Source of the DNA: Myxococcota bacterium
GTDB lineage: Bacteria; Myxococcota_A; Bradymonadia; UBA7976; UBA1532
Assembly: GCA_036337435.1 (NCBI GenBank)
Contig: JAYZEG010000062.1
Location: forward strand, 64,001 to 128,000
DNA length: 64,000 nt
Direction: 5' to 3'
Shown piece by piece: positions 10,485 to 48,242 of the stretch (positions are counted from its first letter, which is position 1; every line of letters begins with the position of its first letter). The notes beneath the pieces are model-generated. The model was given only the letters and a program-made list of their open reading frames with translations. It made no database searches and was not told the origin of the DNA. The position numbers and the translations under genes were made by a program.

Positions 10485-10486
10485 CC

Positions 10487-11541: not shown

Positions 11542-11542
11542 G

Positions 11543-12139: not shown

Positions 12140-12142
12140 GAC

Positions 12143-13564: not shown

Positions 13565-14356
13565 TTAACGTCCCTCCGGCATGGGCAGCATATTGGGGAG
13601 GTCGAATAGACCCACTCGAATTTGTTTTTTAAAGGAGTCGAAGAGGTGGTTGATTTGAAGACGACCGCGCTCTTCATCGACAAAGGTTGTCGTCCAGCCT
13701 GAATCGGACCGTGTTACCAAACCCACTCGGCCTGTACCTGTTCGAAAGTAAAGACCGATGGTTCCGATTCGCACCACATCGACCATGAGCTTTTGGCCAT
13801 CTACGGTGACGGTGTCTCTGTACAACCCCGTCTCTTTAGCCATTTGACGTTCATCTTCTATCAATGACCAAAGCCGAGTGAGTGCCGATCTTGGGCTGAG
13901 AAGTCCACCACTGAGTTTCTGGGTAATCAAGTCGACTTCGGCCAATCGTTCGCCTTGTCTAAATGGAAGGCTTGTCTCGACATATCTTTTGAGTGCAGCA
14001 GCATTTTTCTCAAATATGGGCAAAAGGGCCGCATCGCGTTCTTTAGACGCTTCGATGAGTACTTTCTTTCTCTGCATGGCCTCTGTGAGCTGTGCGTGAC
14101 GCACGGATTCACGTTGTAATTCGGCGTCTAATTGCGCTTTTTGGTTCTCAAATGCGCGTTGTTTGGCACGTCGTTCACGCTTCTTGTTTTCTAACTCTTC
14201 TGTGAGTTCTTCGACCTTTGAGCGCTTCTCGACCAAGGACTTGATGAGGGCGTCCGCATCTTTAACAGTGGCCTTAGAATAGGCGGCCATTGGGCTCATA
14301 CACAGCAGGGCTGCGCTTATGAAAATTTGTGTATGACTCGTCATCATAGTCTCCAT
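13565..14356 (-). CDS. DUF3450 family protein (TtpB-like)
   Basis: Signal peptide, coiled coil, LPFRQGERL and VDVVRIGTIGLYF motifs. It is the first gene of the TonB module. Confidence 0.8.
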   Translation of the reverse strand: METMMTSHTQIFISAALLCMSPMAAYSKATVKDADALIKSLVEKRSKVEELTEELENKKRERRAKQRAFENQKAQLDAELQRESVRHAQLTEAMQRKKVLIEASKERDAALLPIFEKNAAALKRYVETSLPFRQGERLAEVDLITQKLSGGLLSPRSALTRLWSLIEDERQMAKETGLYRDTVTVDGQKLMVDVVRIGTIGLYFRTGTGRVGLVTRSDSGWTTTFVDEERGRLQINHLFDSFKKQIRVGLFDLPNMLPMPEGR

Positions 14357-27910: not shown

Positions 27911-29731
27911 ATGCGTCCAATCGAGGGTCAGTCATATACTGAAGACACAAAATATGCGCTCAGTACCAGTGCATTATTTCACGGACTCTCCGACGAGCAA
28001 TTAGCAGATGTCGCCAAGCACGGCTCACTTTTCCGATATACGGTCGGTCAACATCTGGCCAGGCAGGGCGAACCGTCAGACGCATTTGATATTTTCGTCA
28101 AAGGCGCAGCTGTCGTTCAGCTCGACGATTCGAAGAGTGGGAGCACCGTTGAATTGGCCCGACTCTCACCACCCGATTCCGTAGGCGAGATGGGTGTTTT
28201 GCTTGAAACACCTCGATCGGCCAGTGTCTTGGCTATCGACGATGAGGTGATCGTCATTCGGTTCACAAAAACCCAGTTTTCGAGAATGATTCAGTCGCTC
28301 CCATTCTTCGGTTTGGTGTTGTCTCGAACTTTGGCCGCGCGGCTCCATGCTGTCAATCGCCAAGTCTCATTACCGGAGCACCTCTTCGAGTCTGACCAAC
28401 TTGATGAAGACCTATTTCGCCTTCTGCCAGCCGACTTCATTAGCCGTCATCGGGTTCTGCCTGTGTCCCTTGATCACCATCATGTGACCATTGGGTTCGT
28501 CGATCAGCCAACGGATACGTTATTGCAAAGAATCCAACGTTTGTTGACGGGCATGGTTGTTCGACCGGTTAGCCTCACAGCAGAGCAATTTGATGAGACA
28601 GCACCTAAATTTGGCGTTCGTCCGCAAAGCACGATTATGGCGTCGCAGTCCATGAACACGCAGACTGTTTTCCCCCTCGATTCAATCCTGCGGCAAGTGG
28701 TCGCTGAGGGGGCGTCAGACCTGCACATCTCTGCCAACCAGGTTCCTCGATGGCGCATCGATGGCGCGCTCATTCCCATCCCTGGACACACCGGTCTCAC
28801 ATCCAGTGCGATCGCATCGGCAATGAACGACATTATGCCTTTATCTCGGCAAAAAGAATTCGCTCAGACCAATGATACAGATTTCGCATATCAGCTCGGC
28901 GAACAAGCCCGATTTCGAGTCAATGTATTTCGAGATATTCATGGGGTGAGTGCGGTACTGAGACATATTCCGAGCCTCATCAGAACGCCCGCGCAGCTTG
29001 GGCTCCCAGAGATTATTTCGAGTTTTTGCAAAATGCCCCATGGCTTAATTCTGGTCACGGGTCCAACAGGCAGTGGCAAATCCACGACGTTGGCTGCGAT
29101 GATCGACTCCATAAATCGCGAGCGTGCAGAGCACATCATTACCCTCGAAGACCCGGTTGAGTTTGTCCACAAGTCAAGTCAATCCATGGTCAATCAGCGT
29201 GAAGTTGGGTCTCATACAGACTCCTTCGCTCGCGCACTTCGGGCCGCGCTTCGTGAAGACCCAGATGTCGTTCTTGTTGGAGAGTTGAGAGATTTAGAAA
29301 CCATTTCTCTGGCCATTGAGACAGCTCAGACAGGTCATCTCGTTTTTGCCACCTTGCATACGTCGACCGCCATTGGGACCATAGACCGAATCGTTGGTAT
29401 GTTTCCGCCCGACCAACAAGGTCAGACTCGCTTAAGTTTGGCTGAGGTCTTGAAGGGTGTGGTTGCACAGACTTTGCTGCCCAGACGAACGGGCGGGCGT
29501 GTTGCGGCCTTTGAAATCCTGGTCAGCAGCCCTGCGGTGGCCAATCTGATACGAGAAGCAAAATCTGCCCAATTGGTCAGCACGATGGAAGTGGGCCGCA
29601 AAGCGGGCAACTCACTGCTCAATGATGAATTGGTTCGATTGGTGAACTCGGGCCTTGTCGAGATGGACGTCGCTCATCGACACGCCATTCATAAAGACGA
29701 CTTTTTGAAACGCTTGAAGCGTGTGAAGTAG
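27911..29731 (+). CDS. pilT: PilT/PilU-family type IV pilus retraction ATPase fused to cNMP-binding and T2SSE_N-like domains
   Basis: cNMP motifs (RQGEPSDAFDIFVKG; VGEMGVLLETPRSASV). PilT motifs: ASDLHI, GPTGSGKST, TLEDPVE, LREDPDVVLVGE, TLHT, AVANLIRE. Confidence 0.88.
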   Translation: MRPIEGQSYTEDTKYALSTSALFHGLSDEQLADVAKHGSLFRYTVGQHLARQGEPSDAFDIFVKGAAVVQLDDSKSGSTVELARLSPPDSVGEMGVLLETPRSASVLAIDDEVIVIRFTKTQFSRMIQSLPFFGLVLSRTLAARLHAVNRQVSLPEHLFESDQLDEDLFRLLPADFISRHRVLPVSLDHHHVTIGFVDQPTDTLLQRIQRLLTGMVVRPVSLTAEQFDETAPKFGVRPQSTIMASQSMNTQTVFPLDSILRQVVAEGASDLHISANQVPRWRIDGALIPIPGHTGLTSSAIASAMNDIMPLSRQKEFAQTNDTDFAYQLGEQARFRVNVFRDIHGVSAVLRHIPSLIRTPAQLGLPEIISSFCKMPHGLILVTGPTGSGKSTTLAAMIDSINRERAEHIITLEDPVEFVHKSSQSMVNQREVGSHTDSFARALRAALREDPDVVLVGELRDLETISLAIETAQTGHLVFATLHTSTAIGTIDRIVGMFPPDQQGQTRLSLAEVLKGVVAQTLLPRRTGGRVAAFEILVSSPAVANLIREAKSAQLVSTMEVGRKAGNSLLNDELVRLVNSGLVEMDVAHRHAIHKDDFLKRLKRVK

Positions 29732-31389: not shown

Positions 31390-32535
31390 TTATGGCTGTG
31401 AGGGATCATTTGTTTCGTTCAGCCAGTCGATTGCCCGCCTCACAATTTGGAATTCATGAAGTGCTTGGCCACCTCGGGTTGGGCGCGCATCATCGGCGTA
31501 AATGGCCCATTGTATGCTGGCCCCATTGATCACTTGAGCGAGATTATTCTTATGCAAGCAGACCCAAACACTCAGGCCGTAGACCTCTTGGCTCGGAAAG
31601 AGCGGTGTCGGGTGATATCTGGAATAGGTCAAAGACCCAGAGTTCTGGGTATAATGGGTCTCGCCAAGGACTTTCATTCGGCGGCGAACATCCGAGCCAG
31701 CAAATGGTCTCGGAATGATGAGGTCCAATCCAACATGCCTGGCCAAAGTGCGACCCCGATTGGACACAAAGAGACGGAATTGGATAAAGGCGCGTGGTCC
31801 CCTTGGGTCAGATGTGTCCGTTTGTAGCTTTCCATAGGGGCCAAATCGGGCCAGTTCGATCTTTGGATGAAACGTGCGTCGTAAGACATCTTGGACATGC
31901 ACATGGCCCATTGGCCGACTCTTGCCTGCGATTCTCAAATAGTATCGGTGGTCTTTCGCTTGATGTGGTGCATCTGGACTGGCTGATATTTCAATTACAT
32001 AGATTCCATGACCTGGTTTGATCAGACTTTTTGAGTCCATTCGAGGTGAGACCTCGAACACATTACAGCGGGGTAACGGCGGATCGACACAGGCGGCAAT
32101 CAAGTCTTCAAGCCAGGCCCGTGTACCCCCTTTTAATTCTGTAGGAACACCTCCATCGATTTGCCCTGTATCGTCGATTCCGACAAATAGGAGTCCACCA
32201 GAGCCATTGGCAAAAGCCGACGCTTGTTTCGATAGAAAAAACAGGAAATCCGGTTGAATTTCTTGGGGACTCTTCATCAGCCAGCCAGAGCCTTTGAATT
32301 CTTGAAAGTCATGCTCATGGGGTTCGAGCCCCAAGAGCATTTGTTCTGTCCAAGATTCTGCGCGAGTCAGAGTCTCAGGGGTCTGTGTTGAGTCTAGATT
32401 CACGGCTGATAGAATTGAGCGTGTCGACGCGCGGGTGGTTTCAACCTCCGGTGGTCTGACTGACGGTTTTGCGTCTGCCTCTGCCTTGTTTTCGGACGTT
32501 TGCTGCCCGTCATCTTTGTTTGTGCTATCAGTCAA
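31390..32535 (-). CDS. Schlafen/AlbA_2 domain protein
   Basis: EHDFQEFK, SAFANGSGGLLFVGIDD, PHQ...YYLR motifs and a C-terminal beta-rich domain. Start uncertain. Confidence 0.82.
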   Translation of the reverse strand: MTDSTNKDDGQQTSENKAEADAKPSVRPPEVETTRASTRSILSAVNLDSTQTPETLTRAESWTEQMLLGLEPHEHDFQEFKGSGWLMKSPQEIQPDFLFFLSKQASAFANGSGGLLFVGIDDTGQIDGGVPTELKGGTRAWLEDLIAACVDPPLPRCNVFEVSPRMDSKSLIKPGHGIYVIEISASPDAPHQAKDHRYYLRIAGKSRPMGHVHVQDVLRRTFHPKIELARFGPYGKLQTDTSDPRGPRAFIQFRLFVSNRGRTLARHVGLDLIIPRPFAGSDVRRRMKVLGETHYTQNSGSLTYSRYHPTPLFPSQEVYGLSVWVCLHKNNLAQVINGASIQWAIYADDARPTRGGQALHEFQIVRRAIDWLNETNDPSQP

Positions 32536-33505: not shown

Positions 33506-36500
33506 TTAAGGCGTGCTGGCTTTCGGTATTCGGTATCGTTTGAATAGACTGATATTGTCCCTCAGTGACGATTCATACGGTCTGACATTGGCCCGCGGAG
33601 TCGAGTACTCTAAGAGATGGTTATTGTCGCTTGAGATCAAGTCCAATGCATTGATACCGGCCTCACTCATACCCATAAGAAACCTGTCGAGTTCGCGTGG
33701 GTTGAGCAATAAATTCTGGCTGAGTTCGGGCAGTTTTCCTCCAAATAAATCGAGAAGCGGTTTCAAATTTGGAACTCGAGTCAACGCTTCGCCAATCTTC
33801 GGGTTGGGTGGACATGGCTCGGTACAAGCGACCATCATGCCTTGACCGCCGACCATATACAGCCAGACATCATCAAATTCATTTCTCATTGTCGCAATGA
33901 TTGAAACGAGGTCTGTCGCACTGAGTCGGTGTAATTGAATCCACTGTTGGAATACTCCTTTTGGACGCAGCCTCTTTTTTGCGAGCTGATAGAATTCTGA
34001 GTTGTATAGCGACGCAGCCCCAGCAAACCAGATACTGCTGACTTCGATGCTGATGAGGTCGTATTTATTTTCTGTCAGCATCAAATAATTTCGACCATCG
34101 GTGACGTAGGTGTTTACGCCTTCGCGTGACAAGACCTTGCCATTTTTTCGAGCAAAATAGGTTTTGGCCAGACGCAACAAATCTTCACTAAGTTCGACGA
34201 TGTCGACAGTTGCATAACCACCATCATGCAGGGTTCTGGCCGTGACTCCCGTCCCAAAACCGACAACCAAACTACGCGCTCTCTTATCCGTATGCATCAT
34301 GGGGACTAATCCGAAACCAACTTGGGCACGCATTTCACGTTTATTTGATGAATCGCCCTGGAATTTTCCGTTGGTCAACAGCGTGTAAATCACCTCGCCT
34401 TGTTCATCTTCCGAGCGTTGAACTGTGGTGAGTCCACCGTCTAGACTCTCTGCATAATCAATGACGTCTCCATAGCCCTGACCATGGAAGTAAACATTCG
34501 CACCGGTGGCCAACTGATTCATGTTAAACCCGTCAGGCAGACATGGGAAAAGGGCCATGCAAAGGAGCAGTGGGAGGACCAAGCGTCGCCGTTCTACAGG
34601 CGGCAAACTCCAAGCAACCAGGACGCTCAACCCAAGTGCGATTCCGGCGATGAGCTCAAGGGTCGAGAAAGAACCCAAACCGGGTATAAGTACGAATCCG
34701 CCGATCAACGCACCAATAATGTTGCCTAGCGTATTACTCGCGGACGCACGTCCGAGTGCCAGGAGCCGAATTTTAGGCCAAGCCTGTCCGACAAGCTCCA
34801 TTGAGAACGGGTAAGCCATGCCGATCAAAGTGCTCACAGGAAGCATGGTCAAAGCACAGGTTACGAAGCGCACGAACTCGCGTTTCTCAAAGGTCTTTGT
34901 GTCGCCATATTGCGAGAAGCTTTCAAAATAGCCCGGAATTTGATCCCACCAGAACAAGCCCAAAACGATGACGAAAGCCATACCAAGGTAGCTGTACGCC
35001 AATCCGATGCCGGCGGAGATATCTTTATCGAGCAGGCGCTTGCTCACGCTTGCACCTCCGCCCAGGCCGACGAGAAAACAGAAAAGCATGAGCGCAAAGG
35101 CATAGACGCTATTGCCGGCGACTACAGCCAACAGATGGATGTATGTTGACTCTAACGCGAGAGTCAGGATGCCGCCGATCATCAGGACAAAAACAGCGAC
35201 TTTACCTCGACTCAATTGTGCGGAGCTGGCCCCGTCTACGTTGACTTGCCTCGTGTCTGTGGTCGCGGATAGCAAAGGGAACTGATCGTCGTCTCGATCG
35301 CTTTGTTGTCGCAGCAGGATTTTGCTTATCCAAAGGGCGGCCAGAGCAGCGATGAGGTTCATGGCCACAGCGAGACCTGTGGCCCCCTGACTGCCCAACG
35401 TGGGTAACAGGAGGTATCCCGTGGCGAGTGCACCGACTGCAGCCCCCAACGTGTTGGCACTGTATAGGCGCCCGACCGAGCTGCCGAAATGCTCATTCTT
35501 CTCTTCAAAATACGCTGTCAAAACCGGCAGGGTCATGCCCATTAAAATCGTGGGTGGTGTTAGAATGAGCAGCCCAAATACAAGTTGAATAGCGACAAAT
35601 TTTGGTTCTGAGGGGTCGCCGCCAGCGGCGACGGTGATGTACATATCTTTGATCAGCTCAAAGAGCCATGGTGTGAGAATGCACCATATTGCAATGCCAA
35701 CCTCGCAGACCATGTAGACTCTAATTGGGTCATGCTTGGCATTGGCAACCCGGCCACCGACCCAAGACCCAATTGCAATGCCCGCCATGAAAGCTGTCAG
35801 AACGGTCGCGGACGCAGTTCCCATGCTGCCAAAGGTCAGTGCCAAAGCCTTTGCAAACACGACTTGATACACCAATGCGGCAAATCCAGATGCAAAGAAC
35901 ATGCTGCCGATCCACGGTGCAAATCGATCTCGTTTTGGCGGGATGGCATCTGTTGGGGCCATCCTGATATCGAGACTGTTAACAGACGGCCTAAGTTCGT
36001 TTAGTGACATGACGAAATGGACGATGGTGATACCGGCAAACAGCCAGGTCAACCAGCTTTGATCCCTCATGATGACAGGGGCGTAGATGACCGCGGCACA
36101 CCAGGCCACGAATAGGATCGCCGCGTATCGTACTTTTGCAATTCGTCTCGGTCCAGGATGGATCAAACTCAAAATGCCAATGACAAGGGGACCTGCTGCG
36201 AGTAGGTCAACGATGTAATGGAGACCTAAGGCAATGGTTGCGAGGAGAGTAAGCCCGAGGAAAATCGCTGCCAGAGAAAAAACCAGGCGTCCGAGTGGCC
36301 TCGCGTAAGCCAGTACCACTAAGGCCCAGGCCGTGTGAAGGGATGGAAAACAATTTCGATACTCCGGTATCGCCAAATAGCGAATTGCTTTCATCTTCTC
36401 TGCATTCGGCGGGTCACCTGGAAATCCCGATCTGAAGAAGTAGGTGGGTCCGACCACTGGAATGATGTGATAGAGGGCGAATCCAGCCACGCCGACCCAT

Positions 36501-37249
36501 AGAAATGCGGATAAGATGCCGCTTTCATTTTGCCCTTTTAGACGCTTCGATATGACAAAAACAGCAGCAGCAGCAGCCGGCAAATGCATGTAAATGAGGA
36601 CAAGCAAGCCGCGGAGTATAGGCATGGACGCCACGCCAGCGGCGATCTGAAATGAGGGAGCGTCGAAAAATGCAGAGTCGATCATGTAGACCGATGCATC
36701 GAACACCCGTGGGTGTAAGATACGAGTGAGGCCAACAAAACTGATACTTGCCGCGATGAAGCCGGGGAGAAGGTACATTTTTCCGAGGACGTTGGCTTTT
36801 CGATTCGACCCAAGTGTTTGCAGACCGAACTGGGTCACAATGGCCGTTAAACCAAGGCCGGTGCCCAGGTTGAGCAGGACTTGGTACAGCGTATGAGAGC
36901 CACCAGGGCGGTACCGGCTAAGAGCAATATCGACGCTTAAGCCCACAACGGTAACCAGTATGCACGTCTTGATGCCGGGTTTTTGGCTCAGGAAAATTAA
37001 AAATGAGCCGAGTAGTGCTGAACTTAGAAAAGGAGAACCGTTACCAAACAAACCAAGAACATGCTTGTGCGGTGGATCGACGACAGCCGCCAGACCGAGG
37101 ATTTCACCAACCAAGATCAAGGCGATGAGGGTGATGGTCCAACCGCCAATAGACTGTTCATAAAGACTCGCATTTGAGTCCAGCTGTGTCTCTGTTGATT
37201 CTGTGGCGGACGGACTAGACATTGATCTCGGTTGACCTTGGTCGTTCAC
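33506..37249 (-). CDS. Fusion of PAP2 (AUR1/IPC-synthase-like) membrane domain, multi-TM domain and spermidine-synthase-like SAM-fold domain
   Basis: PAP2 motifs YHIIPVVGP, CFPSLH and HYIVD. Central MFFASGFAALVYQVV...LYSANTLGAAVG membrane repeats. C-terminal LVVGFGTGVT, DIVEL, DGRNYL, LYNSEFY. Confidence 0.82.
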   Translation of the reverse strand: MNDQGQPRSMSSPSATESTETQLDSNASLYEQSIGGWTITLIALILVGEILGLAAVVDPPHKHVLGLFGNGSPFLSSALLGSFLIFLSQKPGIKTCILVTVVGLSVDIALSRYRPGGSHTLYQVLLNLGTGLGLTAIVTQFGLQTLGSNRKANVLGKMYLLPGFIAASISFVGLTRILHPRVFDASVYMIDSAFFDAPSFQIAAGVASMPILRGLLVLIYMHLPAAAAAVFVISKRLKGQNESGILSAFLWVGVAGFALYHIIPVVGPTYFFRSGFPGDPPNAEKMKAIRYLAIPEYRNCFPSLHTAWALVVLAYARPLGRLVFSLAAIFLGLTLLATIALGLHYIVDLLAAGPLVIGILSLIHPGPRRIAKVRYAAILFVAWCAAVIYAPVIMRDQSWLTWLFAGITIVHFVMSLNELRPSVNSLDIRMAPTDAIPPKRDRFAPWIGSMFFASGFAALVYQVVFAKALALTFGSMGTASATVLTAFMAGIAIGSWVGGRVANAKHDPIRVYMVCEVGIAIWCILTPWLFELIKDMYITVAAGGDPSEPKFVAIQLVFGLLILTPPTILMGMTLPVLTAYFEEKNEHFGSSVGRLYSANTLGAAVGALATGYLLLPTLGSQGATGLAVAMNLIAALAALWISKILLRQQSDRDDDQFPLLSATTDTRQVNVDGASSAQLSRGKVAVFVLMIGGILTLALESTYIHLLAVVAGNSVYAFALMLFCFLVGLGGGASVSKRLLDKDISAGIGLAYSYLGMAFVIVLGLFWWDQIPGYFESFSQYGDTKTFEKREFVRFVTCALTMLPVSTLIGMAYPFSMELVGQAWPKIRLLALGRASASNTLGNIIGALIGGFVLIPGLGSFSTLELIAGIALGLSVLVAWSLPPVERRRLVLPLLLCMALFPCLPDGFNMNQLATGANVYFHGQGYGDVIDYAESLDGGLTTVQRSEDEQGEVIYTLLTNGKFQGDSSNKREMRAQVGFGLVPMMHTDKRARSLVVGFGTGVTARTLHDGGYATVDIVELSEDLLRLAKTYFARKNGKVLSREGVNTYVTDGRNYLMLTENKYDLISIEVSSIWFAGAASLYNSEFYQLAKKRLRPKGVFQQWIQLHRLSATDLVSIIATMRNEFDDVWLYMVGGQGMMVACTEPCPPNPKIGEALTRVPNLKPLLDLFGGKLPELSQNLLLNPRELDRFLMGMSEAGINALDLISSDNNHLLEYSTPRANVRPYESSLRDNISLFKRYRIPKASTP

Positions 37250-37699: not shown

Positions 37700-39742
37700 T
37701 TGTTTTGGTTCTTAATCGCTATCACCATCGCTTTGGGCGCCGTCTACGGAGGGTGGAGATGGTCGATTTTGCTCGGGTGTGCTGCGGCCGTTCTCGCATT
37801 GGCTCGACAGGGTGAACCAACCACTCAACCCCCGTCGGTCGTTCGAATCAAAGCTAATGAAACAGGCACGGGGCAGAAAACATGTCGGCGATGTCACCCA
37901 GCTGAATGGAAAACCTGGAATGCCAGTTACCACAAGACCATGACTCAGCTGCCATCCGACGAGACAGTTCTCGCGCCATTCAAGCAGGACTTGAATGGAT
38001 TGTCCGGACGTTGGCGCCTATTTCAGGATGAGGGTCTCTACAAGGCGGAACACACGGAACCCAATGGCCGCGTGAAGACGGCGACGGTGGCGCTGCTGAC
38101 CGGGTCTCATCACATGCAGAACTACTGGTTATCGGTTGGAGACGGCTGGTTGATACAGCTTCCTTGGGTCTGGTGGATTAAAGGGCAGCGATGGATTCCC
38201 GTCGAAATGTCTTTTCTGAGGCCAGCGCCTACAGGCCCGGAGCCGCCATCAGTTTGGAACGATGAATGCGTATACTGTCATACGACGAGTGGATTTCGCG
38301 GGGCGGACCGTGCTGCAAATACAACCCAAAGCCAAGTCGATGAGTTAGGCATATCGTGTGAGTCTTGTCATGGGTCCGCAACCGCTCATGTTGCTCATTA
38401 TCAAAGTCCCATCAATCGCTATTTGGGTTGGCTGAATCGGCCGGTAGAAAAGATTACGGCACCGCTCAAGCCAACCGATGACAGCATCAATGTTTGTGGT
38501 CAGTGCCATGGTTTGTTTGCCCACCTAAATGGGCGAGCGCGGGATCTCGCAGGCGATTCCCATAAGCCTGGAGACGACCTTGCCAAAACCAGAAAGTTTC
38601 TGCGCTTAACTCCGTCTCCTCTGGTCGGTAAACGCCCTATTTTAAAATCAAAAGAAGGCCGAGGGCCAACGGTGATTCGCGGCTCGAGCGGGCCCCTTCA
38701 TCTGGTCGGTTTAAGCACCGATGGATTACACCTGGTGGGTGGTCCGAAAACCCCACAAAATCTATCTGTTTTCGTTGGTGAGCTTGCATTGAATGGGGAA
38801 TTTGAGCCGTACTCAGGTGGTGGATTTCTGAGTGTGCCTACGTGGACCGACCGACAATGGTATGGGATTCTTGATGCCCTTGGATATTCAGGCGTTGCAT
38901 TCAAACCTTATGATTGGAATGCATTTTGGGATGACGGAACCATGCGCACGGCGGGCCGAGCCCTCAACGGTATGCTTGATTCGGCCTGTGCATCCGCGGG
39001 CAGCATGACCTGTTCGACTTGTCACACCATGCATGGTCATGAGCCTGATGATCAGCTCAAAGCTGGCTATCGAGGGAATAAAGCCTGTGAATCCTGTCAC
39101 AAAGCCTACGTAGACGATCCCGTTAGCCATAGTAATCACCCGCTGAGTGGTGGCGGAAGCGATTGCCAAAACTGCCATATGCCGCACACAACCTATGGCC
39201 TCTTGGGGGCATCTCGGACACATCGTGTGGAAAATCCTAGGCCGTTTTTAATGCAGCAGCGCGGCCGGCCCAATGCATGTAATTTATGTCACATGGATAA
39301 GTCGGTTCGTTGGGCTCAAAGTTGGACGGACAAATGGTATGGTAAAAAAGGCAAAGACATGCCTCTTGACCGCCGTCCGGCTTTGGATGAACCCGCGGGT
39401 TTAGTTTGGCTGCTCTCCGGTGACGCAGCCCAGAGAGCAATTGCCCTTTGGCATCTGGGGTGGGGATACACACGTGAGATAGCTGGCACTGATCGCTGGT
39501 TGGACCAATTGAAGCCGATCTTGAAATCTGACCCGTATGCAGCTGTGAGGGCCATTTTTGAACAAGTCCTAAAGACCGTACAGCCAGATGAAAAATACGA
39601 CTTTACGCAGTGGCCTGCAGACGGTCATCATCCTATGGAAAGAGCCGACCAAGGTAAGGCTGTTCCGACGGTACACACCGAATCCTTATACCAATCATTG
39701 CTTGAGGATCGGATCGACAGGCCCATCATCATCGCAGAGTAG
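37700..39742 (+). CDS. Membrane-anchored octaheme c-type cytochrome
   Basis: N-terminal hydrophobic segments and eight CxxCH motifs (CRRCH, CVYCH, CESCH, CGQCH, CSTCH, CESCH, CQNCH, CNLCH). C-terminus is helical and HEAT-like. Confidence 0.88.
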   Translation: MFWFLIAITIALGAVYGGWRWSILLGCAAAVLALARQGEPTTQPPSVVRIKANETGTGQKTCRRCHPAEWKTWNASYHKTMTQLPSDETVLAPFKQDLNGLSGRWRLFQDEGLYKAEHTEPNGRVKTATVALLTGSHHMQNYWLSVGDGWLIQLPWVWWIKGQRWIPVEMSFLRPAPTGPEPPSVWNDECVYCHTTSGFRGADRAANTTQSQVDELGISCESCHGSATAHVAHYQSPINRYLGWLNRPVEKITAPLKPTDDSINVCGQCHGLFAHLNGRARDLAGDSHKPGDDLAKTRKFLRLTPSPLVGKRPILKSKEGRGPTVIRGSSGPLHLVGLSTDGLHLVGGPKTPQNLSVFVGELALNGEFEPYSGGGFLSVPTWTDRQWYGILDALGYSGVAFKPYDWNAFWDDGTMRTAGRALNGMLDSACASAGSMTCSTCHTMHGHEPDDQLKAGYRGNKACESCHKAYVDDPVSHSNHPLSGGGSDCQNCHMPHTTYGLLGASRTHRVENPRPFLMQQRGRPNACNLCHMDKSVRWAQSWTDKWYGKKGKDMPLDRRPALDEPAGLVWLLSGDAAQRAIALWHLGWGYTREIAGTDRWLDQLKPILKSDPYAAVRAIFEQVLKTVQPDEKYDFTQWPADGHHPMERADQGKAVPTVHTESLYQSLLEDRIDRPIIIAE

Positions 39743-40563: not shown

Positions 40564-43500
40564 TTAAAGCGTGTAGAAAATATTGAGGTGAACGCGGAGG
40601 TTTTGATCACTGAATTGAGTCCGATTGAGTGGATAGGCTAAATCGAGCCTCAGTGGAATTTGTCCGCTTACGAGCCATCTCAATCCGCCACCGACACTGG
40701 ACCGAACCCGATCGGTGGACATCTCGGACCAAGACGGGGCGATCGCTCCAATGTCTGTAAAAGTTGCAAACCATAAGTCATCGATCACAAAGGTTGGGAA
40801 GCGGAGTTCAAGACCACCCAAGAACATTGAGCGTCCCCCAATGGTTGATGCAACTGCAAATGAGTCTTCTGCCGATAGACCCGGTGGATAGACATCTTCG
40901 CAATAATTACCTCGCCCATTGGTCTCTAAGCCGTTACACGCATCGACCGCCGCATCTTCATAGCCCCTGATCGGCAGCGCAACCCCATCGCCGCCGGCCT
41001 TGAAGAAGAAATCAGATTGCAAGTCACTCTCTTTTAAGTCGGTCCAGACCGCACCGACTCTGAGATTAGGCACGATAATGAATTGCCGTTTGAAAAACGA
41101 TTTGATGTACTGGCCGGTCAGCGTGGCTTTGATGGGCAGTTCATTGAGCTCCGTTAACTCTGGAAAAACAAATTCTGCTTGAGCTGATACCAGCCAACCA
41201 AGCGTTGGATGTAAGGGACTATCGCGTCGATCCCAGGACAATGAGGGCGAGAGAGTGACTTGTTTGGTCGGTTCTTCGAAAAGGGGTCGTTCGCCTGCCC
41301 GAGTCAGGGGTCTGAGTCGTTCCTGGACGAACTCGGTTTTCAAGGTTGCTCTCAATCCACGACCCCACCGTGCTGGGTACGATAGATTGTAGAAATCAAA
41401 ACCAATGGTCGCTTTTGCATTTAACTCTTCTTGATAGGCATCGCGTTGACTCGTTCGGCCTCGTTCGAACAAAGTCTCAATTGCAAGGTCGAGTCGAGTT
41501 CCAAACAGCCTTCGATTCTTAAAGAATGGACCGGTCCTCCACACGGAATCATCGTTTTGTACATCAGTGGCCGCATCGATTCGGTTACTGTGGGAAAATC
41601 CAAGACCAACTTCGAGCGCGCGACCCAAAAAATTACGGTGTCTAATGGTGGTGCCAACTGCGTAGAGAACGGGGAGTTCTTCTTCAAGTGGTGTCGAATC
41701 GATTTGCAGGCCCAGATACGCTTCCAGCAACTTTGACCGTGATTCTTCAACCGTGACCACCACAGTGGCATCTCGATCTTTAATTAATCCTTCGTTCGTA
41801 GCCACCCAATCTTCAGATTGTCGCCCAATGTATTCGATGTTGACAGCGGAGAAAACGCCCAGTGAGCGCAGGTTTGCTTGACTTAGAAATAGACCATCAC
41901 TGCCAAGGGGTTGGCCCGGCTTGAGAAGCAATTCGTCACGGAGGATTGAATCTTTTGTTGAGAGATTCCCCCTCAATAAAATGCCCGATACAAGGGTTTG
42001 AGGGCCCGGATCAATTTCGAAGAAAACGCGTTTTAACCGCATTCCGTATAGCCGGTCCTCTGAACATGAATCGCCCTTTAAAACCAGTCCAGATGCGAGC
42101 TCACACGCTGAGTCAACTCGGGCACTCAGGTAGCCGTTTTGGTGGTAATATCGGAGGACAAACCCGCGAAGGGCCTTGAGTCTGGCTTGAGTAAATCCAA
42201 GTTGTCGAATCCACCGACCGAATTCATCCATGACCCCCTGTTCTTGAAGCAGGGCTCTTGCCTCAGTCTGCATTTGAGCGTCCATTTGGCCGATGATTTT
42301 TGAGAATTCGATTTTGTCGATCAGGGTTCGCAGGCCTTCATCAACATCGATTTGGATATTCACAAAGCGGGGATCGTCATCGGGAATAATTTGGAAACAA
42401 TTATGAGTCAGTGGGTTGTCGCTCCAAACATCAAACTGACCACTAAACATGGACTCGTCAATGGCTGGACCCTCGCTCGTCTGCTCTTGTTCTCGTAATT
42501 GCCTCAGAACGCTCCATTCCTGCGCACCGACCTTCGGGTTTGCGCACCGAAACTTTAATCCGGGCATTCCATTGCGTTTATAGAGCTCGCGGATTCGGTT
42601 GAGATCATTAATGAGTTTTTCATCCTGAACGATCCCAGCAGACTTTGTCAGTGCATTAACGACGCCATCAGGCGCGATCCCTTTCGTTTCCATTTCCCCC
42701 AAGATGTCTTGTTCAGGGAGTGTCTGATTGCCACGAATTGTGATTCGTCTGGCATAAACTGAAGGGCCTTCATCGATTCTGAATGTGATGATGAAGCGCC
42801 CATCGCCAATCGCCTCTCGAGAGCTCTTAATGGATACGAAGTAACGCGCGGATGCTTGGTACAAACCCTTCATTTTTCGGATACTTTCGATGACCTCTGT
42901 TTCATCGAAAGTTCCTGATTCACTGAAGGTTAGAACCTGCTTTAATTCTCCGTCGGAGAGGGTTTCATTGCCTTCAAATCGGGTCCTTAAATGCTTGCCC
43001 TCGACGATCCGAACTTTCGGATATACGCGACCATTTTTCTCGGCTAGATCCGGTTCTAAACGCACCCTGGCTGACACCCAGCCAGCGCGTCGATAAAGGT
43101 CCTCGACAGCGGTAAGCTCCTCTTTTAGAGTCCGTCTTGCATATCGTCCTACACCGAAAAGACCGAAAAGACCTCGCCAAAAATCGGTCCGTTCACCAGT
43201 TGAAATCTGGTTGATGATTTTCCAGTAGGGCATGCCTTTGGCACCCTTAATGAGAATCTGCCCAATCTTTGGTTGTTCACCTTCCTTGATGCGGACCTCT
43301 ACCCTCACTTTTTTCCCATTGGGACCAGAGTATGAAGGCGTAATCTTGACCTCGGTACCCAAATAACCCTGGCGCCTGTAAAGGTCTAAAACGCGTGTTT
43401 CATACTGTTCGATAAGCGTCTTATCTCGTTGAGCGAATGTTCCATCAGACTTCATCGGTGGGAAACTGCCACCCCTGCGTAAAGGTAATCTTTTTCGAAT

Positions 43501-43935
43501 TTCAGCTACGAATTGCTTTGGATAGAACCAACTGGCCCAGCTTGCGTAGACAACATCAAGGTCTTGGATAATCACGTGTCCGACACAGTCGAACACGATT
43601 CGAGTATAGCGGCCGCCCTTAACGGGCTTCCAACGGATTGTGATGCGCCTGAAGTAACCGGTTCGCATCAAGCGGCTCCATGACTCAGCCACGCCTTTTC
43701 CCGTGATCTTACTGCCTTGTTTCAAATTGATTAAATCGATGAACTTTTGTCGATTTCGATCAGCATTACAAATTGGAATATCGCATCGAAGCTCCACATT
43801 TTGAGCGAGGACCCAGTTTTCCCAGCGTGCTGCTTGCGACCGGATGTCACTCATGGTCAGCGCGTCGTCCGGGCTGGCGGCCAGGGCTGTTATGGCATGC
43901 CCCATCAACAGACCTATGGTCAGACAATATCTCAA
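40564..43935 (-). CDS. Omp85-family outer-membrane protein (TamA/BamA-like) with multiple POTRA domains
   Basis: Signal peptide, POTRA repeats (RFEGNETLSDGEL; IRGNQTL; LRGNLSTKDSILRDEL), WDRRDSPLHPTLG, IRGY, GLELRFP, GGGLRW, PLRLDLAY. Confidence 0.88.
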   Translation of the reverse strand: MRYCLTIGLLMGHAITALAASPDDALTMSDIRSQAARWENWVLAQNVELRCDIPICNADRNRQKFIDLINLKQGSKITGKGVAESWSRLMRTGYFRRITIRWKPVKGGRYTRIVFDCVGHVIIQDLDVVYASWASWFYPKQFVAEIRKRLPLRRGGSFPPMKSDGTFAQRDKTLIEQYETRVLDLYRRQGYLGTEVKITPSYSGPNGKKVRVEVRIKEGEQPKIGQILIKGAKGMPYWKIINQISTGERTDFWRGLFGLFGVGRYARRTLKEELTAVEDLYRRAGWVSARVRLEPDLAEKNGRVYPKVRIVEGKHLRTRFEGNETLSDGELKQVLTFSESGTFDETEVIESIRKMKGLYQASARYFVSIKSSREAIGDGRFIITFRIDEGPSVYARRITIRGNQTLPEQDILGEMETKGIAPDGVVNALTKSAGIVQDEKLINDLNRIRELYKRNGMPGLKFRCANPKVGAQEWSVLRQLREQEQTSEGPAIDESMFSGQFDVWSDNPLTHNCFQIIPDDDPRFVNIQIDVDEGLRTLIDKIEFSKIIGQMDAQMQTEARALLQEQGVMDEFGRWIRQLGFTQARLKALRGFVLRYYHQNGYLSARVDSACELASGLVLKGDSCSEDRLYGMRLKRVFFEIDPGPQTLVSGILLRGNLSTKDSILRDELLLKPGQPLGSDGLFLSQANLRSLGVFSAVNIEYIGRQSEDWVATNEGLIKDRDATVVVTVEESRSKLLEAYLGLQIDSTPLEEELPVLYAVGTTIRHRNFLGRALEVGLGFSHSNRIDAATDVQNDDSVWRTGPFFKNRRLFGTRLDLAIETLFERGRTSQRDAYQEELNAKATIGFDFYNLSYPARWGRGLRATLKTEFVQERLRPLTRAGERPLFEEPTKQVTLSPSLSWDRRDSPLHPTLGWLVSAQAEFVFPELTELNELPIKATLTGQYIKSFFKRQFIIVPNLRVGAVWTDLKESDLQSDFFFKAGGDGVALPIRGYEDAAVDACNGLETNGRGNYCEDVYPPGLSAEDSFAVASTIGGRSMFLGGLELRFPTFVIDDLWFATFTDIGAIAPSWSEMSTDRVRSSVGGGLRWLVSGQIPLRLDLAYPLNRTQFSDQNLRVHLNIFYTL

Positions 43936-46900
43936 TTCAAATTAACCCTTAATTTGAGTCGACCTGTCGTCGAGATATTACTGCCAAGTCGTTCATTGGA
44001 GAGCTCGCCAAATGCCACATTATTGATTTGATATCGCAACCCAAATTGTTGTGGATTCCCGTCTTGTTCTTCGCCTACGAGAACACGTGAATAGAGGTAT
44101 AGCCGTCTGGAAAGCACCTTGTTTGCATCGATATATAGCGTGCCGGTTGACAGCGGAGTGAGGGTTAAGTCGACTTTAAAAGTGTCTTCCAGTGGCCGTT
44201 CGACCAGACTCAGCAGTGGTGCTAAAACCACTTCCGTTGCTGGTTGTGCGCCAGCCGCACCGCTGAGATTTTCTGGATAACTGCCCGTGAGTACCAGCAT
44301 GACTACTTCGAACTTACTTGCACCGCTATTACTCGATAGGTCAAAGGCAAAACTGGGTGGCGATTCACGGGTTGGAAAGGCCAAACGAGCTGATAAGACG
44401 ACTTCTTCAAGTCTGATGTCTCCCGAACCTGAATCGAAGCTGGTTGATGCTGTTGAGACACTTTGACCAGTTCTGAGCGTGAACGTCCGATTCGCTTCAA
44501 TTTGTGCATCGAGGAAATTACGGCCACCAAAATTGACCACTCCATTTGAGACATCAAATTCACGCCTCGCGTAGGTAATGGTTGAATCCGGTAACACGCT
44601 GATCGTACCCAAGATGGCCAATCGTTCATCGGCTGTATCGTGCGGCATGTTGTACAAAAAACCTTTAATTTCTTCTAAATCTAAACCGATTTCGAGATTG
44701 TTAGTCAGGGTCAGAACTCGGTTCCGGATGTAGAATCCCCCTTCACCGACAACGCTTAAGTCGAGCATCAGTCTTTTTAAGGACGGAATGCGTTCAAAAA
44801 CACTCACGGTCCGAGTTTGTGTCCGACCACTGAGGCGGTTTCTAAACCCCTGGTTGAGTTCTGCAACGCCAGTTAAATCTGCCAGGTATTCGCCTTGAAT
44901 CACGTCGATCTCTCCAGAGACCTTCATTCGCCGCTCATCCCGTCTGTCGTCGAACTCCTTTATCCAAGATTCGTAAACAAGGTTGGGTGTATCAAAAGTG
45001 CCCCGAACCACCCGCGGCACATTGAGTCCGATTTCACTGCCTGAAAGGCCAACTCGGATACGGTCAAGAGTAAACCCCTTTGTCGTCACAAGGACGTCAT
45101 TAATACGAATGACTGAATCGTCTCGCATGAGACGCATTTCGCCCGCAGTCTCGGGGGCGTTTGTCCCTTTTATGAGGCTGATTTTCAAATCTCCGGCACC
45201 GTTTACTTCATCGGATGTAGAGTCAGTTCGATGTGCCTCGATGGCAAACCGTGCAGGCGCAAGCAGATCGAGTTGTGAACCGATGATGGCGGCTCGCGGC
45301 ACAAATTCACCTTGGGTCACGACCAGTTTCAAATCCGGTTCTGGTGCTTGGATAAACCCTTTTAAAGACCCATCCAGGTTCAGTTCGCCACTCGCTTCGC
45401 TAAACACACTGTTTAAGAAGGGCATTGCGAGACCGAGGTTGATCTTGCCCCTGGTGGTCATCTCTAATCGGCCGTCAGAATAAACATCTCCGTCGAGCCG
45501 AATTGTAGATTCATACTGGTCATTTTTCTGATCAAAGCCTTCGAGATTTAATATCCTGAGTCGCAGTGCCAATTGCTGAGTGTTTAGCTTTGTTCCATCC
45601 CATTTGAATTGCACTGGATTGGTGAGGTCAGCAGAGTAGCTGACTGCGTCTTCGAAAGCATATTTTGTCTGCAGTTGCTTTAGGTTTGCAGTTGCTTCTA
45701 GGAGGGCTGGTTTGAACGGGTCAAATTTAAGTTCGATGCGACCGGTCATTTTAGATTTTAGTGCACTCTCCGACAGTTGTGGCAAATGGTCTTCGACACC
45801 AAAACCATCAAATTCGATAAGCGCGCTACCCGGGCCTGATCGTTTGACCAGTGGTGTAGATGCACTGATGCGTAGGTCATCCAAGATTTGACCGGTCAAT
45901 TGCATTTGTTTTTTATCGGCCCGGATTTCAAATTCTGTTCGGCCCAACTTGTAATCTCCATATTCGCCTTCGACAATGCTCAATTGGCCTTGTCCCGACG
46001 GGGTCTTCAAGTTGCCCGATAGGGTCACATCGGCCACGAGACGACCAGCGATTGGTAGTGGCTCTTTGACGAAATGATTGATCCAGTCCAAAGGGACTCC
46101 ATTGATCTTCAGCTGGCCAGAGAAATTCAATCGCTTGATATGTCCATTTCCGCTGAGATCGACCAAAGTTTTACGGCGGTCCTCGATTTTCAAAGTCTCT
46201 ATTTTGACTTTCTCTCCGGACCAATCACCCACGACTTCGACCCGCCGGAAGCAGAGTGGTTTATCGCCATACGGCGTTTTCCAGCATGGTCGTGCGATCC
46301 GGCCTCGCCCGGTGACGCGGGGATTGCTCAGGGGTCCGCGAAGTCGCACATCGACGGCTGTTCGTCCTGAGAAACGATCGATGAACGGTAATGATGCCAA
46401 TTCAAATTGTCTTGCGTTCAGACGAAAGTCCATTGGTTTTCCGGGCTTAGACAAGGACAGACGGCCTTTGAAGCCAATGGATCCATTGTCGGATTTCAAG
46501 GACACTTGGTCGAAATCCAATAAGCCGGCCTGGTAGGCGACTTTGCCCTTGATGGCTGACTTCGGCAGCTCGCCATAACGCACCCGTGTGGCGTTGATAT
46601 CAGCGTGAAACCGTGGATTTAAGGCGAACCCTTTGACGCCGAAGTCGATACGGGCCCGTCCCTTGGTCGGATATCCAAACGAGGCCGTCAGTGGGCTGAG
46701 TTTGCCAATCACGGCTTGACCCTGAATGTTGATGAGAAAGGTATCCAAATCAAATTTGCCTTTTAGACCCAATCTTTTGGTTCTGTCCGAGAGCTTGAAA
46801 GACTGAATATCGAATGTGTTGTCTTGCAATTCTAGATAACCATCGACGGCTAAATTTCGGCCAAGGCCGAATGGTCGATTTTTAGCCGACAGTGTTTCGA

Positions 46901-48242
46901 GCTGAGTCTTAATGGAGAACAACGGAGTATCGCCGATAAGATGTCTCGCCTCAGCAAAGATATGGCCTGTTAATCGACCCCCGAGACTGGCCCCTACGTT
47001 CGTGGGCATAGACACAGGCAACGCGTCGAGTGGGACGTCGTCCATGAATACACTGAGGTGTGCGTAGTCGTCGTCTGTACGCCACTCTCCGTGCGCAATC
47101 ATTCGCCCTTTTTCAAGGTCTGCATCCACGTAGTTGACCTTCATAGCGTCGTTCTTCGTTTTCTCGATTTGTGCCTGAAGGCTTTGAATCTTCACGCCCT
47201 GACAGTTCAAGTCCGTGCCGCCGATTTGGATAATTCCGTCTAAGTCATCTGCTTCTCCTGAGACCTGTGCATCAATGGTCGCTGGACCTGAGATGGGCGA
47301 CTCAACAAATGTATTTATGTGTTTGTCGATCTGGTCTGTATCGAGCCGAAGTCGCGTATTTAGATAGGGCACCTCTGGCCTGTCTAACTCCATTTTGAAG
47401 CCTTCGAGGAAGAATGGGTCGCCTCGCAATAGGCCCCGTAACTTGCTGAAATTAAAATCCTCATCATTCCAGTTGAAGTCGTCGATTTTCACCTGTCGGA
47501 GAGACCAAGACCAAACATCTTCAGGATCCGCATACAGCGGTTTTTTCAGTGCAGTATCTTTTGCGACTCGCACTTGAATACTGCCGACTTTGAGGCCTTC
47601 AATTTCGATGGCCATCAAGCTGTCCGTCGCGGTTGAGTAACTTCGAAAACGCCCGGCTGGAATTTGAATACCATGAGCAATGATTGACGTGCTTGGATGG
47701 TCGAGAATAAAGATGGCATTCCGAATTTTGATGCGCGTCAGGTCGAGGTCCAATGGTTTTGAATCACCGGTGTCGATTTGTGTACCGATAGACCAAAACA
47801 TTTCGGCGATGTTCATCACTCGATCATCTTTTGGATCAGAACCAGATTCCGAACGAACGAGACTGACTAGGCGTGTGACCGGTGCATCGATATGGACACC
47901 TTGTGCTGACAAACGGTTGTCGAAAAGGCCAAGAATATCGAGCTCTCGAATCGTCAAGCTCTTGGCTTCGATGACGGTTCGCCCGGTTGAATCAACCAGC
48001 ACCGGCTCTAAGAGCTTGAGGTCAGAAGGCCATGGCCCCCAAGCCAGTCGAGTCCAGGCCACTTGGCCCCTGATCTTTGAATTAACCAGTACGTCAAATG
48101 CTTGGTTTGTAAACCGCGAATTGAGTGCGAAATAGCCGAGAAAATACACCAGACAGACAAATGCGCCGGCGAGTATCACAAAAGCGCTCACCCGCTGATA
48201 CATGCTTACGCTCTTACGAACGAGTGTCTGTACGGTGTCCAT
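43932..48242 (-). CDS. AsmA-like/TamB-family translocation and assembly module protein
   Basis: N-terminal TM anchor, long beta-rich repeats (LRGPLSNPRVTGRG; LSGNLKTPSGQG). Overlaps the Omp85 gene by 4 nt. Confidence 0.82.
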   Translation of the reverse strand: MDTVQTLVRKSVSMYQRVSAFVILAGAFVCLVYFLGYFALNSRFTNQAFDVLVNSKIRGQVAWTRLAWGPWPSDLKLLEPVLVDSTGRTVIEAKSLTIRELDILGLFDNRLSAQGVHIDAPVTRLVSLVRSESGSDPKDDRVMNIAEMFWSIGTQIDTGDSKPLDLDLTRIKIRNAIFILDHPSTSIIAHGIQIPAGRFRSYSTATDSLMAIEIEGLKVGSIQVRVAKDTALKKPLYADPEDVWSWSLRQVKIDDFNWNDEDFNFSKLRGLLRGDPFFLEGFKMELDRPEVPYLNTRLRLDTDQIDKHINTFVESPISGPATIDAQVSGEADDLDGIIQIGGTDLNCQGVKIQSLQAQIEKTKNDAMKVNYVDADLEKGRMIAHGEWRTDDDYAHLSVFMDDVPLDALPVSMPTNVGASLGGRLTGHIFAEARHLIGDTPLFSIKTQLETLSAKNRPFGLGRNLAVDGYLELQDNTFDIQSFKLSDRTKRLGLKGKFDLDTFLINIQGQAVIGKLSPLTASFGYPTKGRARIDFGVKGFALNPRFHADINATRVRYGELPKSAIKGKVAYQAGLLDFDQVSLKSDNGSIGFKGRLSLSKPGKPMDFRLNARQFELASLPFIDRFSGRTAVDVRLRGPLSNPRVTGRGRIARPCWKTPYGDKPLCFRRVEVVGDWSGEKVKIETLKIEDRRKTLVDLSGNGHIKRLNFSGQLKINGVPLDWINHFVKEPLPIAGRLVADVTLSGNLKTPSGQGQLSIVEGEYGDYKLGRTEFEIRADKKQMQLTGQILDDLRISASTPLVKRSGPGSALIEFDGFGVEDHLPQLSESALKSKMTGRIELKFDPFKPALLEATANLKQLQTKYAFEDAVSYSADLTNPVQFKWDGTKLNTQQLALRLRILNLEGFDQKNDQYESTIRLDGDVYSDGRLEMTTRGKINLGLAMPFLNSVFSEASGELNLDGSLKGFIQAPEPDLKLVVTQGEFVPRAAIIGSQLDLLAPARFAIEAHRTDSTSDEVNGAGDLKISLIKGTNAPETAGEMRLMRDDSVIRINDVLVTTKGFTLDRIRVGLSGSEIGLNVPRVVRGTFDTPNLVYESWIKEFDDRRDERRMKVSGEIDVIQGEYLADLTGVAELNQGFRNRLSGRTQTRTVSVFERIPSLKRLMLDLSVVGEGGFYIRNRVLTLTNNLEIGLDLEEIKGFLYNMPHDTADERLAILGTISVLPDSTITYARREFDVSNGVVNFGGRNFLDAQIEANRTFTLRTGQSVSTASTSFDSGSGDIRLEEVVLSARLAFPTRESPPSFAFDLSSNSGASKFEVVMLVLTGSYPENLSGAAGAQPATEVVLAPLLSLVERPLEDTFKVDLTLTPLSTGTLYIDANKVLSRRLYLYSRVLVGEEQDGNPQQFGLRYQINNVAFGELSNERLGSNISTTGRLKLRVNLN

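Follow-up and report, generated by a model that had tools for sequence, protein, structure and literature searches.

A three-domain inner-membrane protein with Aur1-like, transporter-like and spermidine-synthase-like parts, and the frequent linkage of its family to type IV pilin genes

Each part of the protein described here resembles a known system. Aur1, the catalytic subunit of inositol phosphorylceramide (IPC) synthase (PDB 9ivc, 9vj3/9vj4), is a membrane enzyme of the PAP2_3 type with a conserved His/His/Asp triad, and in known PAP2 enzymes the motifs face outward. Spermidine synthases (SpeE; T. thermophilus 1uir/3anx, Synechococcus 6qmm, human 2o05) carry a GGG(E/D)G loop whose acidic residue selects decarboxylated S-adenosylmethionine (dcSAM) over S-adenosylmethionine (SAM). 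A twelve-helix membrane fold is found in the DHA1-type antiporters of the major facilitator superfamily (MFS) such as NorA, VMAT2 and SotB, and in the lipid-handling MFS proteins Spns1 and LtaA. The uncharacterised family NF037959, "fused MFS/spermidine synthase", joins an MFS-like membrane domain to a SpeE-like domain. Enzymes known to decorate pilins are few, namely O-glycan ligases, the arabinosyltransferase TfpW and the phospho-form transferases of Neisseria. Here we analysed a gene at 33506..37249 on the minus strand of a 64,000-nucleotide stretch of DNA (the window) from a Myxococcota bacterium (assembly GCA_036337435.1, contig JAYZEG010000062.1, positions 64,001 to 128,000 of the forward strand). 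The gene encodes a three-domain inner-membrane protein in which a head-group-transferase-like domain, a transporter fold and a spermidine-synthase look-alike are joined; the protein is real, widespread and unstudied.

Our favoured reading, offered tentatively and with somewhat less than even confidence, is that the protein is an uncharacterised inner-membrane enzyme decorating an envelope substrate exposed to the periplasm, which in most family members would be the type IV major pilin. For those members that are linked to pilin genes we lean slightly towards a pilin-related role. The window's own gene belongs to a clade that is mostly without such linkage, so that for this gene the pilin reading is an extrapolation; here a pilin-related role is possible but rather doubtful, and a lipid-centred role is a live rival.

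Domain architecture and orientation in the membrane

The original prediction had described one unbroken reading frame of 1247 codons joining a PAP2-type domain to a module of the fused MFS/spermidine synthase type. The listing of open reading frames (ORFs) and the translation bear this out, and the motifs CFPSLH, HYIVD, YHIIPVVGP, GFGTG and IEVSSI are all present. Pfam assigned PAP2_3 (PF14378) to residues 193-360 (53.6 bits, cut-off 27), MFS_1 (PF07690) to residues 450-769 (42.2 bits, cut-off 33.4) and Spermine_synth (PF01564) to residues 982-1126 (40.6 bits, cut-off 22.9). The NCBIfam assignment is NF037959 (106.4 bits, cut-off 40), to which the window protein adds an N-terminal Aur1-like PAP2_3 domain of approximately 420 residues and an active-site loop of its own. 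Translation probably starts at the ATG at residue 10 (37222), giving 1238 amino acids (aa), because homologue P0002 (87% identical) has exactly this length and the record in the ESM Atlas has the same first residue. Neither the GTG nor the ATG is preceded by a strong ribosome-binding site, and promoter and terminator scans gave background levels only. The parts of the gene are as follows.

33506..37249, minus strand: whole ORF, 1247 aa from GTG, uninterrupted (ORF listing)
35990..37192, minus strand: Aur1-like PAP2_3 membrane domain, approximately residues 20-420, 10-11 helices (Pfam PF14378, AlphaFold2, VIA-align)
36335..36358, minus strand: PAP2 motif R298, N299, P302, S303 and H305, the first catalytic His (alignment)
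36206..36220, minus strand: PAP2 motif H344-x3-D348, the second catalytic His and the Asp (alignment)
34583..35941, minus strand: 12-helix MFS fold, approximately residues 437-889 (Pfam MFS_1, VIA-align)
34541..34600, minus strand: 13th hydrophobic helix, residues 884-903 (model 837-856), after a positively charged loop
33584..34534, minus strand: spermidine-synthase-fold domain, approximately residues 906-1222, predicted periplasmic (Pfam PF01564, fold matches)
34247..34261, minus strand: nucleotide-binding loop G997-F-G999-T1000-G1001 (alignment with SpeE)
34028..34045, minus strand: rebuilt active-site loop E1069-V-S-S1072-I1073-W1074 (alignment with SpeE)

Of 7999 candidates scored in a protein search, 891 matched at E<=0.001. 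The 120 homologues listed of these 891 are all 1087-1298 aa long, and nearly all of them carry both PF14378 and PF01564. Scanning prokaryotic genomes, one per species, gave 309 pattern-matched stretches, 288 of which encode a relative. The fusion is therefore real and not confined to one assembly. An assembly chimera or a missed stop was rejected on the basis of the homologue lengths, of invariant residues in all three domains of a 115-sequence alignment (approximately 40% identity; all conservation counts below refer to it) and of named isolates among the carriers, which include Perlucidibaca piscinae, Variovorax saccharolyticus and Inhella gelatinilytica. The 78 loci that we retained from the species-genome scan come from Myxococcota, Burkholderiales, Rhodocyclales, Moraxellaceae, Methylobacter, Competibacter, Cardiobacterium, Desulfomonilaceae and Thermoanaerobaculia. 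It had also been stated that no characterised enzyme has this architecture. Our literature search found no paper on the PAP2/MFS/SpeE-like fusion or on fused MFS/spermidine synthases, and the single PAP2 mention in a Myxococcus pilus paper turned out to be a plasmid name. The architecture itself is not new, since the ESM Atlas already holds two clusters of it with 54 and 115 members, though uncharacterised.

In its distribution the gene looks accessory and patchy. A search of 30 relatives of the window genome found the three-domain gene in the window's genus alone (in four of four genomes, the window genome included), which fits the expectation for an accessory surface-modifying gene. The copies in the other three genomes are 86, 63 and 57% identical; the most distant of them (G003:C579:6780-10451) contains one internal TAG and could be a pseudogene or affected by a sequencing error. 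The other genera hold only paralogous MFS/SpeE-like genes, which match from approximately residue 440 onward. One such paralogue lacking PAP2 is also present in the window genome (G000:C26:18262-20292, locus L088; open frame of 1062 aa). It is 26% identical to the window protein over 686 aligned positions (BLASTP) and likewise has Glu at the catalytic position, in an active-site loop Glu-Pro-Ser-Asn-Pro-Trp that is followed by approximately 300 further residues. Some genomes hold two to three family copies in tandem, as in an Oxalobacteraceae locus (L069, 7620-19162) and a Burkholderiales locus (L011, 4401-11187). Relatives of the PAP2 part that stand alone are rare: only 8 matches were found, approximately 30-36% identical, among them actinobacterial PAP2_3 + DUF5933 proteins.

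For the structural comparison we used an AlphaFold2 model of residues 48-1247, built from 115 sequences (mean predicted local distance difference test score, pLDDT, 93.3; predicted template modelling score 0.92). Matches were scored with VIA-align (Z scores) and Foldseek. The N-terminal 445 residues folded alone with a pLDDT of 89.8, and their best structural match by VIA-align was yeast Aur1 (9ivc_A; Z 15.5, root-mean-square deviation 6.2, 257 of 335 residues aligned over positions 20-443 of this domain model, 18% identity). LpxE (Z 13.5), PgpB (Z 11.9) and the sphingomyelin-synthase-related protein SMSr (8ijr, Z 10.2) followed. While Aur1 covers the entire domain, the phosphatases LpxE and PgpB cover a core of approximately 160 residues alone. 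Foldseek gave no match to the PAP2 domain at E<=0.001, with Aur1 entries on ranks 1-2 at E 0.012-0.014. The label "IPC-synthase-like" hence holds at the level of the fold, and the PAP2 site is intact as had been proposed: H305 is conserved in 110, H344 in 112 and D348 in 112 of the 115 sequences, accompanied by R298 (115), N299 (110), P302 (113) and S303 (112). The likeness to Aur1 has its limits, however. Sequence similarity is marginal (profile E 0.76-0.91), nothing here hints at inositol, ceramide or a Kei1-type partner, and the domain is bacterial and fused to two more.

The middle part, which had been called simply a membrane region, is indeed membrane-embedded; in fact it is a complete 12-helix MFS transporter fold. 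With the full model, VIA-align matched NorA (28vj_B; Z 28.9, 353 of 358 residues aligned), OxlT (27.9), VMAT2 (27.9), Spns1 (26.0) and LtaA (23.4), so that antiporters and lipid-handling proteins alike share the fold at Z 23-29 over approximately 350 residues. Conserved acidic residues within helices, a feature of MFS antiporters, are also found in this family, where the membrane-embedded E516, E700, E791 and R794 are each present in 115 of 115 sequences. Unlike those transporters, to which it is only 10-15% identical, the domain is flanked on both sides by enzyme domains.

The C-terminal domain shares the entire fold of SpeE, including the N-terminal beta-sheet part. T. thermophilus SpeE (1uir_A) aligned over 289 residues with Z 28.1 (VIA-align), and 1uir was also found by Foldseek (E 3.4e-8) and by a profile search of the PDB (E 1.6e-14). 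The glycine loop is kept (G997, G999 and G1001 each in 115 of 115), as are the acidic residue ending strand 2 and D1051 (115 of 115); position 1019 is always acidic (Glu in 68, Asp in 47). Residue 1000, which aligns with the acidic residue of the SpeE loop, is Thr in 109, Val in 4 and Ser in 2 sequences, in agreement with the reported GFGTG in place of GGGDG and the loss of the Asp that marks dcSAM use. The reported loss of the DxxD motif (IEVSSI) stands in part: the second acidic position is Ser (S1072, 114 of 115), but the catalytic acid is retained as an invariant Glu, E1069 (115 of 115), which takes the place of the catalytic Asp in the alignment to solved SpeE structures. I1073 and W1074 are likewise invariant (115 of 115 each). 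The active-site loop was modelled with low confidence (pLDDT <50 at model 1025-1029) and is probably mobile. The aminopropyltransferase equivalogs TIGR00417 (54 against a cut-off of 249.55), PRK00811 (66.3 against 260) and PRK03612 (136.7 against 472) were not reached. Judged by its residues, the domain looks cofactor-competent and catalytic, yet by the defining ones it is not an aminopropyltransferase; a degenerate, non-functional SpeE domain was rejected because of the strict residue conservation. Apart from these substitutions, it differs from SpeE in being tethered to the membrane and in its predicted periplasmic location.

This location is suggested by a short additional helix. Alignments to MFS proteins stop at model residue 838-842, approximately, and the SpeE alignment begins at 859; between them lies a uniformly hydrophobic helix of 20 residues, helix 13. 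Because the hydropathy profile of the single sequence was too noisy, we used the family average, in which this helix peaks at 2.12 and the preceding loop holds 2.1 K+R and 0.2 D+E. The homologue alignment shows the same short hydrophobic helix with basic flanks. Presumed cytoplasmic loops average 2.1-4.6 K+R and most presumed periplasmic loops approximately 0. Counting helices from the PAP2 motifs, MFS helix 1 starts on the cytoplasmic side, as MFS proteins require. The outward PAP2 site and the inward MFS termini are thus two independent constraints that agree with each other and with the K+R pattern, which supports the topology. Accordingly the PAP2 active site is predicted on the periplasmic face, and since helix 13 takes the C-terminal part across the membrane, the SpeE-like domain is predicted to be periplasmic as well. 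That the protein is an outward-facing three-domain enzyme is, in our judgement, probable. The original prediction had proposed SAM-dependent modification of a lipid; in its simple cytoplasmic form this is unlikely as stated, because helix 13 and the positive-inside pattern put the SAM-transferase-like domain in the periplasm.

Linkage of the family to type IV pilin genes

To compare the neighbouring genes, ORFs were predicted throughout the 78 loci and grouped by BLASTP. The biggest cluster of neighbours is the type IVa major pilin, with 57 proteins in 43 loci that carry PF00114 and the N-terminal methylation motif. Second, with 22 loci, come pilin accessory proteins of the TfpX/TfpZ family (NF041437, up to 289.5 bits), and a PglL/Wzy_C-type ligase resembling O-oligosaccharyltransferases third with 12 loci. 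Considering only loci flanked on each side by at least 1.5 kb, a pilin-type ORF (by BLAST cluster or motif) lies within 3.5 kb in 38 of 50; by the same flank rule, TfpX/Z genes are found in 15 of 50 loci and a PglL-type gene within 3.5 kb in 11 of 50. This pilin linkage of the family is a new observation.

Most often the pilin gene lies directly upstream in the same orientation. Where at least 1.5 kb of upstream sequence was available, the pilin lies upstream on the same strand in 32 of 55 loci, and 45 of 73 ORFs with a pilin motif start within 2 kb upstream of the family gene. The density of pilin-motif ORFs is 51 per 100 kb in the first upstream bin of 1 kb and 27 in the second, and falls to 0-7 per 100 kb further upstream. 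The linked pilins are ordinary PilA-type proteins with a C-terminal disulphide loop. The family thus fills the slot directly after the major pilin gene. In Pseudomonas aeruginosa the gene right after pilA encodes either a pilin glycosylator (TfpO, TfpW) or an assembly helper (TfpX/Y/Z) (PMC11841053). The position directly after the major pilin gene is hence shared with TfpO/PglL and TfpW, and just as in the group IV/V loci of P. aeruginosa (PMC11841053), a TfpX/TfpZ gene is often found beside family members. The domain set, in contrast, is wholly unlike that of the enzymes known to serve or modify pilins: when the window protein was searched against Pfam and NCBIfam, none of the pilin accessory families (Wzy_C/PglL ligase, TfpW-type glycosyltransferase, TfpX/Z) was found, with no direct pairwise comparison made to TfpW.

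The linkage is unevenly distributed over the family. In a FastTree phylogeny of 68 proteins the window protein groups with proteins from Myxococcota, a Desulfomonilaceae metagenome-assembled genome, Perlucidibaca and Hydrogenophaga (local support 98). Outside this clade 34 of 39 loci have a nearby pilin, compared with 4 of 11 within it; among the exceptions within the clade is an Archangium locus whose adjacent, divergently oriented gene encodes a true PilA (PF14245). Some pilin-less loci of the window's clade have different neighbours. In L056 (4586-5173) and L002 (6651-7226) a CDP-alcohol phosphatidyltransferase adjoins the family member, which would fit a supply of donor phospholipid, and in L074 (11534-12978) a fatty-acid hydroxylase and a TadE-like gene adjoin it.

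Proposed activity and competing explanations

In the favoured reading, the Aur1-like domain would take a phospho-head group from a membrane glycerophospholipid via a phospho-histidine intermediate and pass it to an acceptor hydroxyl. The MFS domain, whose nearest likenesses are cation/proton antiporters and MFS proteins that handle lipids, may carry a cytoplasmic small molecule outward, for which a SAM-type donor or a polyamine is the most plausible candidate. The periplasmic SpeE-derived domain would then alkylate the same substrate, or the new head group, with the delivered molecule. In the window's lineage the acceptor may be a pilin encoded elsewhere or another envelope component. A more specific version, which we regard as quite unlikely, is a two-step outward-facing pilin decorator that would place a phospho-head group on a pilin hydroxyl and follow it with SAM-type alkylation, yielding a cationic decoration resembling phosphocholine or a polyamine. 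Phospho-head-group transfer to pilin, if present here, would parallel Neisseria, whose pilin phospho-forms are made by the transferases PptA and PptB.

Several observations weigh against decoration of pilins. Adjacency to a pilin gene is no proof that the pilin is the substrate, and neighbours of the TfpX/Y/Z type work in pilus assembly, not in modification (PMC11841053). A nearby pilin is missing in 5 of the 39 loci outside the window's clade. The window gene itself is not pilin-linked: a pilin motif scan of the 64-kb window found none, all 8 prepilin-type genes of the window genome lie on other contigs, only those 4 of 11 loci in its clade have a pilin nearby, and its two closest relatives have none. 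One subgroup of the family, similar to it in length, departs from the PAP2 pattern: P0103 has lost the catalytic His and Asp residues of the PAP2 site and kept the rest, its MFS and SpeE-like parts still being 48% identical, and P0017 and P0035 have no PAP2_3 match in Pfam. The two activities need therefore not be coupled. Finally, the periplasmic placement of the C-terminal domain follows from topology rules, and we know of no pool of SAM or dcSAM in the periplasm.

A lipid substrate is the obvious competitor. The Aur1-like domain could shift a phospho-head group between lipids, for instance onto ceramide or diacylglycerol, with the transferase-like domain methylating or otherwise alkylating the product and the MFS domain flipping it. 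Over the full domain, the nearest structures are those of Aur1 and the sphingomyelin-synthase-related protein, Spns1, Spns2 and LtaA are among the MFS matches (Z 22.7-26.0), and in the window's clade, mostly not linked to pilins, lipid genes adjoin the family member in L056, L002 and L074. Against this, 34 of the 39 loci outside that clade adjoin pilin genes and not lipid-synthesis genes, no lipid-synthesis gene adjoins the gene in the window, and the family is present in Burkholderiales, Moraxellaceae and Methylobacter, which to our knowledge are not sphingolipid producers. Nothing points to ceramide, which had been suggested as a substrate; the conserved neighbours elsewhere are type IV pilin and pilin accessory genes. 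We consider a membrane-lipid enzyme unlikely. Lipids would also be involved if the PAP2 domain were a phosphatase for undecaprenyl pyrophosphate, or another lipid phosphate, released in the periplasm by a PglL-type ligase during protein O-glycosylation, the rest of the protein being unrelated to this task. The PglL/Wzy_C-type genes near 11 of 50 loci and the matches of LpxE and PgpB to the PAP2 core agree with such a role. The other 39 loci have no such gene nearby, Aur1 spans the whole domain with 257 residues where the phosphatases match its core only, and the strictly conserved MFS and SpeE-like domains would be left unexplained, making this account improbable.

A true polyamine enzyme, that is a membrane-anchored aminopropyltransferase making or exporting spermidine-like polyamines for the cell surface with PAP2 as an accessory, is in our view distinctly improbable. 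The spermidine-synthase fold (Z 28.1) and the alignment to SpeE (E 1.6e-14) would allow it, as would an MFS domain whose nearest matches, NorA and VMAT2 for instance, are amine/cation antiporters. Also, the window genome holds a SAM decarboxylase gene (AdoMet_dc, PF02675), which makes dcSAM available; a lack of dcSAM in the organism was for this reason rejected. But every equivalog cut-off was missed by far, the dcSAM-marking Asp has given way to Thr in 109 of 115 sequences and the second loop acid to Ser in 114 of 115, and a spermidine-synthase domain is already encoded by a separate open frame of 570 aa in the genome. The earlier statement that the protein is probably not a polyamine synthase thus agrees with both the equivalog scores and the Thr. 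Slightly less probable again is a non-catalytic assembly factor or scaffold that, like TfpY/TfpZ, merely binds pilins in the membrane. The gene does occupy a pilin accessory position, where TfpX/Y/Z-type neighbours promote assembly without modifying the pilin (PMC11841053), and the subgroup with a dead PAP2 site would fit. The catalytic-type residues of both enzyme domains and the charges within the MFS domain are, however, invariant or nearly so in 115 sequences that are only about 40% identical, which is unexpected for a mere scaffold.

The window locus and implications for the family

The window shares the synteny around the gene with its two closest relatives, L001 and L036; in all three, genes for an Omp85-type protein, a multihaem cytochrome, the family member, a PhyH-type dioxygenase, a glycyl-tRNA synthetase and a PilB-like ATPase are found. 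In the window, the genes around the family member are the following.

27911-29731, plus strand: type II/IV secretion ATPase (T2SSE, 174.5 bits) with N-terminal cyclic-nucleotide-binding and MshEN domains, 3.8 kb from the gene; position kept in L001 and L036
32643-33461, plus strand: PhyH-type Fe/2-oxoglutarate dioxygenase (117.7 bits), converging on the 3' end of the gene; neighbourhood kept only in the window's small clade with L001 and L036
37312-37728, minus strand: 138-aa ORF, 63 nt upstream of the gene on the same strand; no Pfam or NCBIfam family, not a pilin
37700-39742, plus strand: multihaem cytochrome c, 680 aa, divergent from the gene
40564-48242, minus strand: 1123-aa Omp85/POTRA protein and a 1436-aa ORF, beyond the cytochrome c

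The 138-aa ORF may not be a real gene. Pfam searches with the remaining ORFs of the window, except the 1436-aa one, found housekeeping and envelope genes only and no lipid-synthesis gene beside the window gene. Elsewhere in the window, a Schlafen AlbA_2 domain (57.8 bits) is present in the 381-aa protein encoded at 31390-32535 (minus strand), and 6295-14356 (minus strand) holds a cluster for a TonB-dependent receptor, a tetratricopeptide repeat protein, TonB, ExbD, two MotA/ExbB-type proteins and a DUF3450 protein.

The name under which the protein is currently annotated misleads, since it wrongly points to polyamine synthesis. Type IV pili serve in adhesion, twitching and DNA uptake and are major phage receptors, and if this family does modify pilins, bacteria would have a new chemical means of varying their surface. 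With a SpeE fold predicted in the periplasm and joined to a transporter, the question arises whether SAM-type donors can be used outside the cytoplasm. If true, the specific two-step pilin decorator would be the first case of SAM-type alkylation beyond the cytoplasm and would assign a role to the large "fused MFS/spermidine synthase" family, probably that of masking pili from phages or other recognition.

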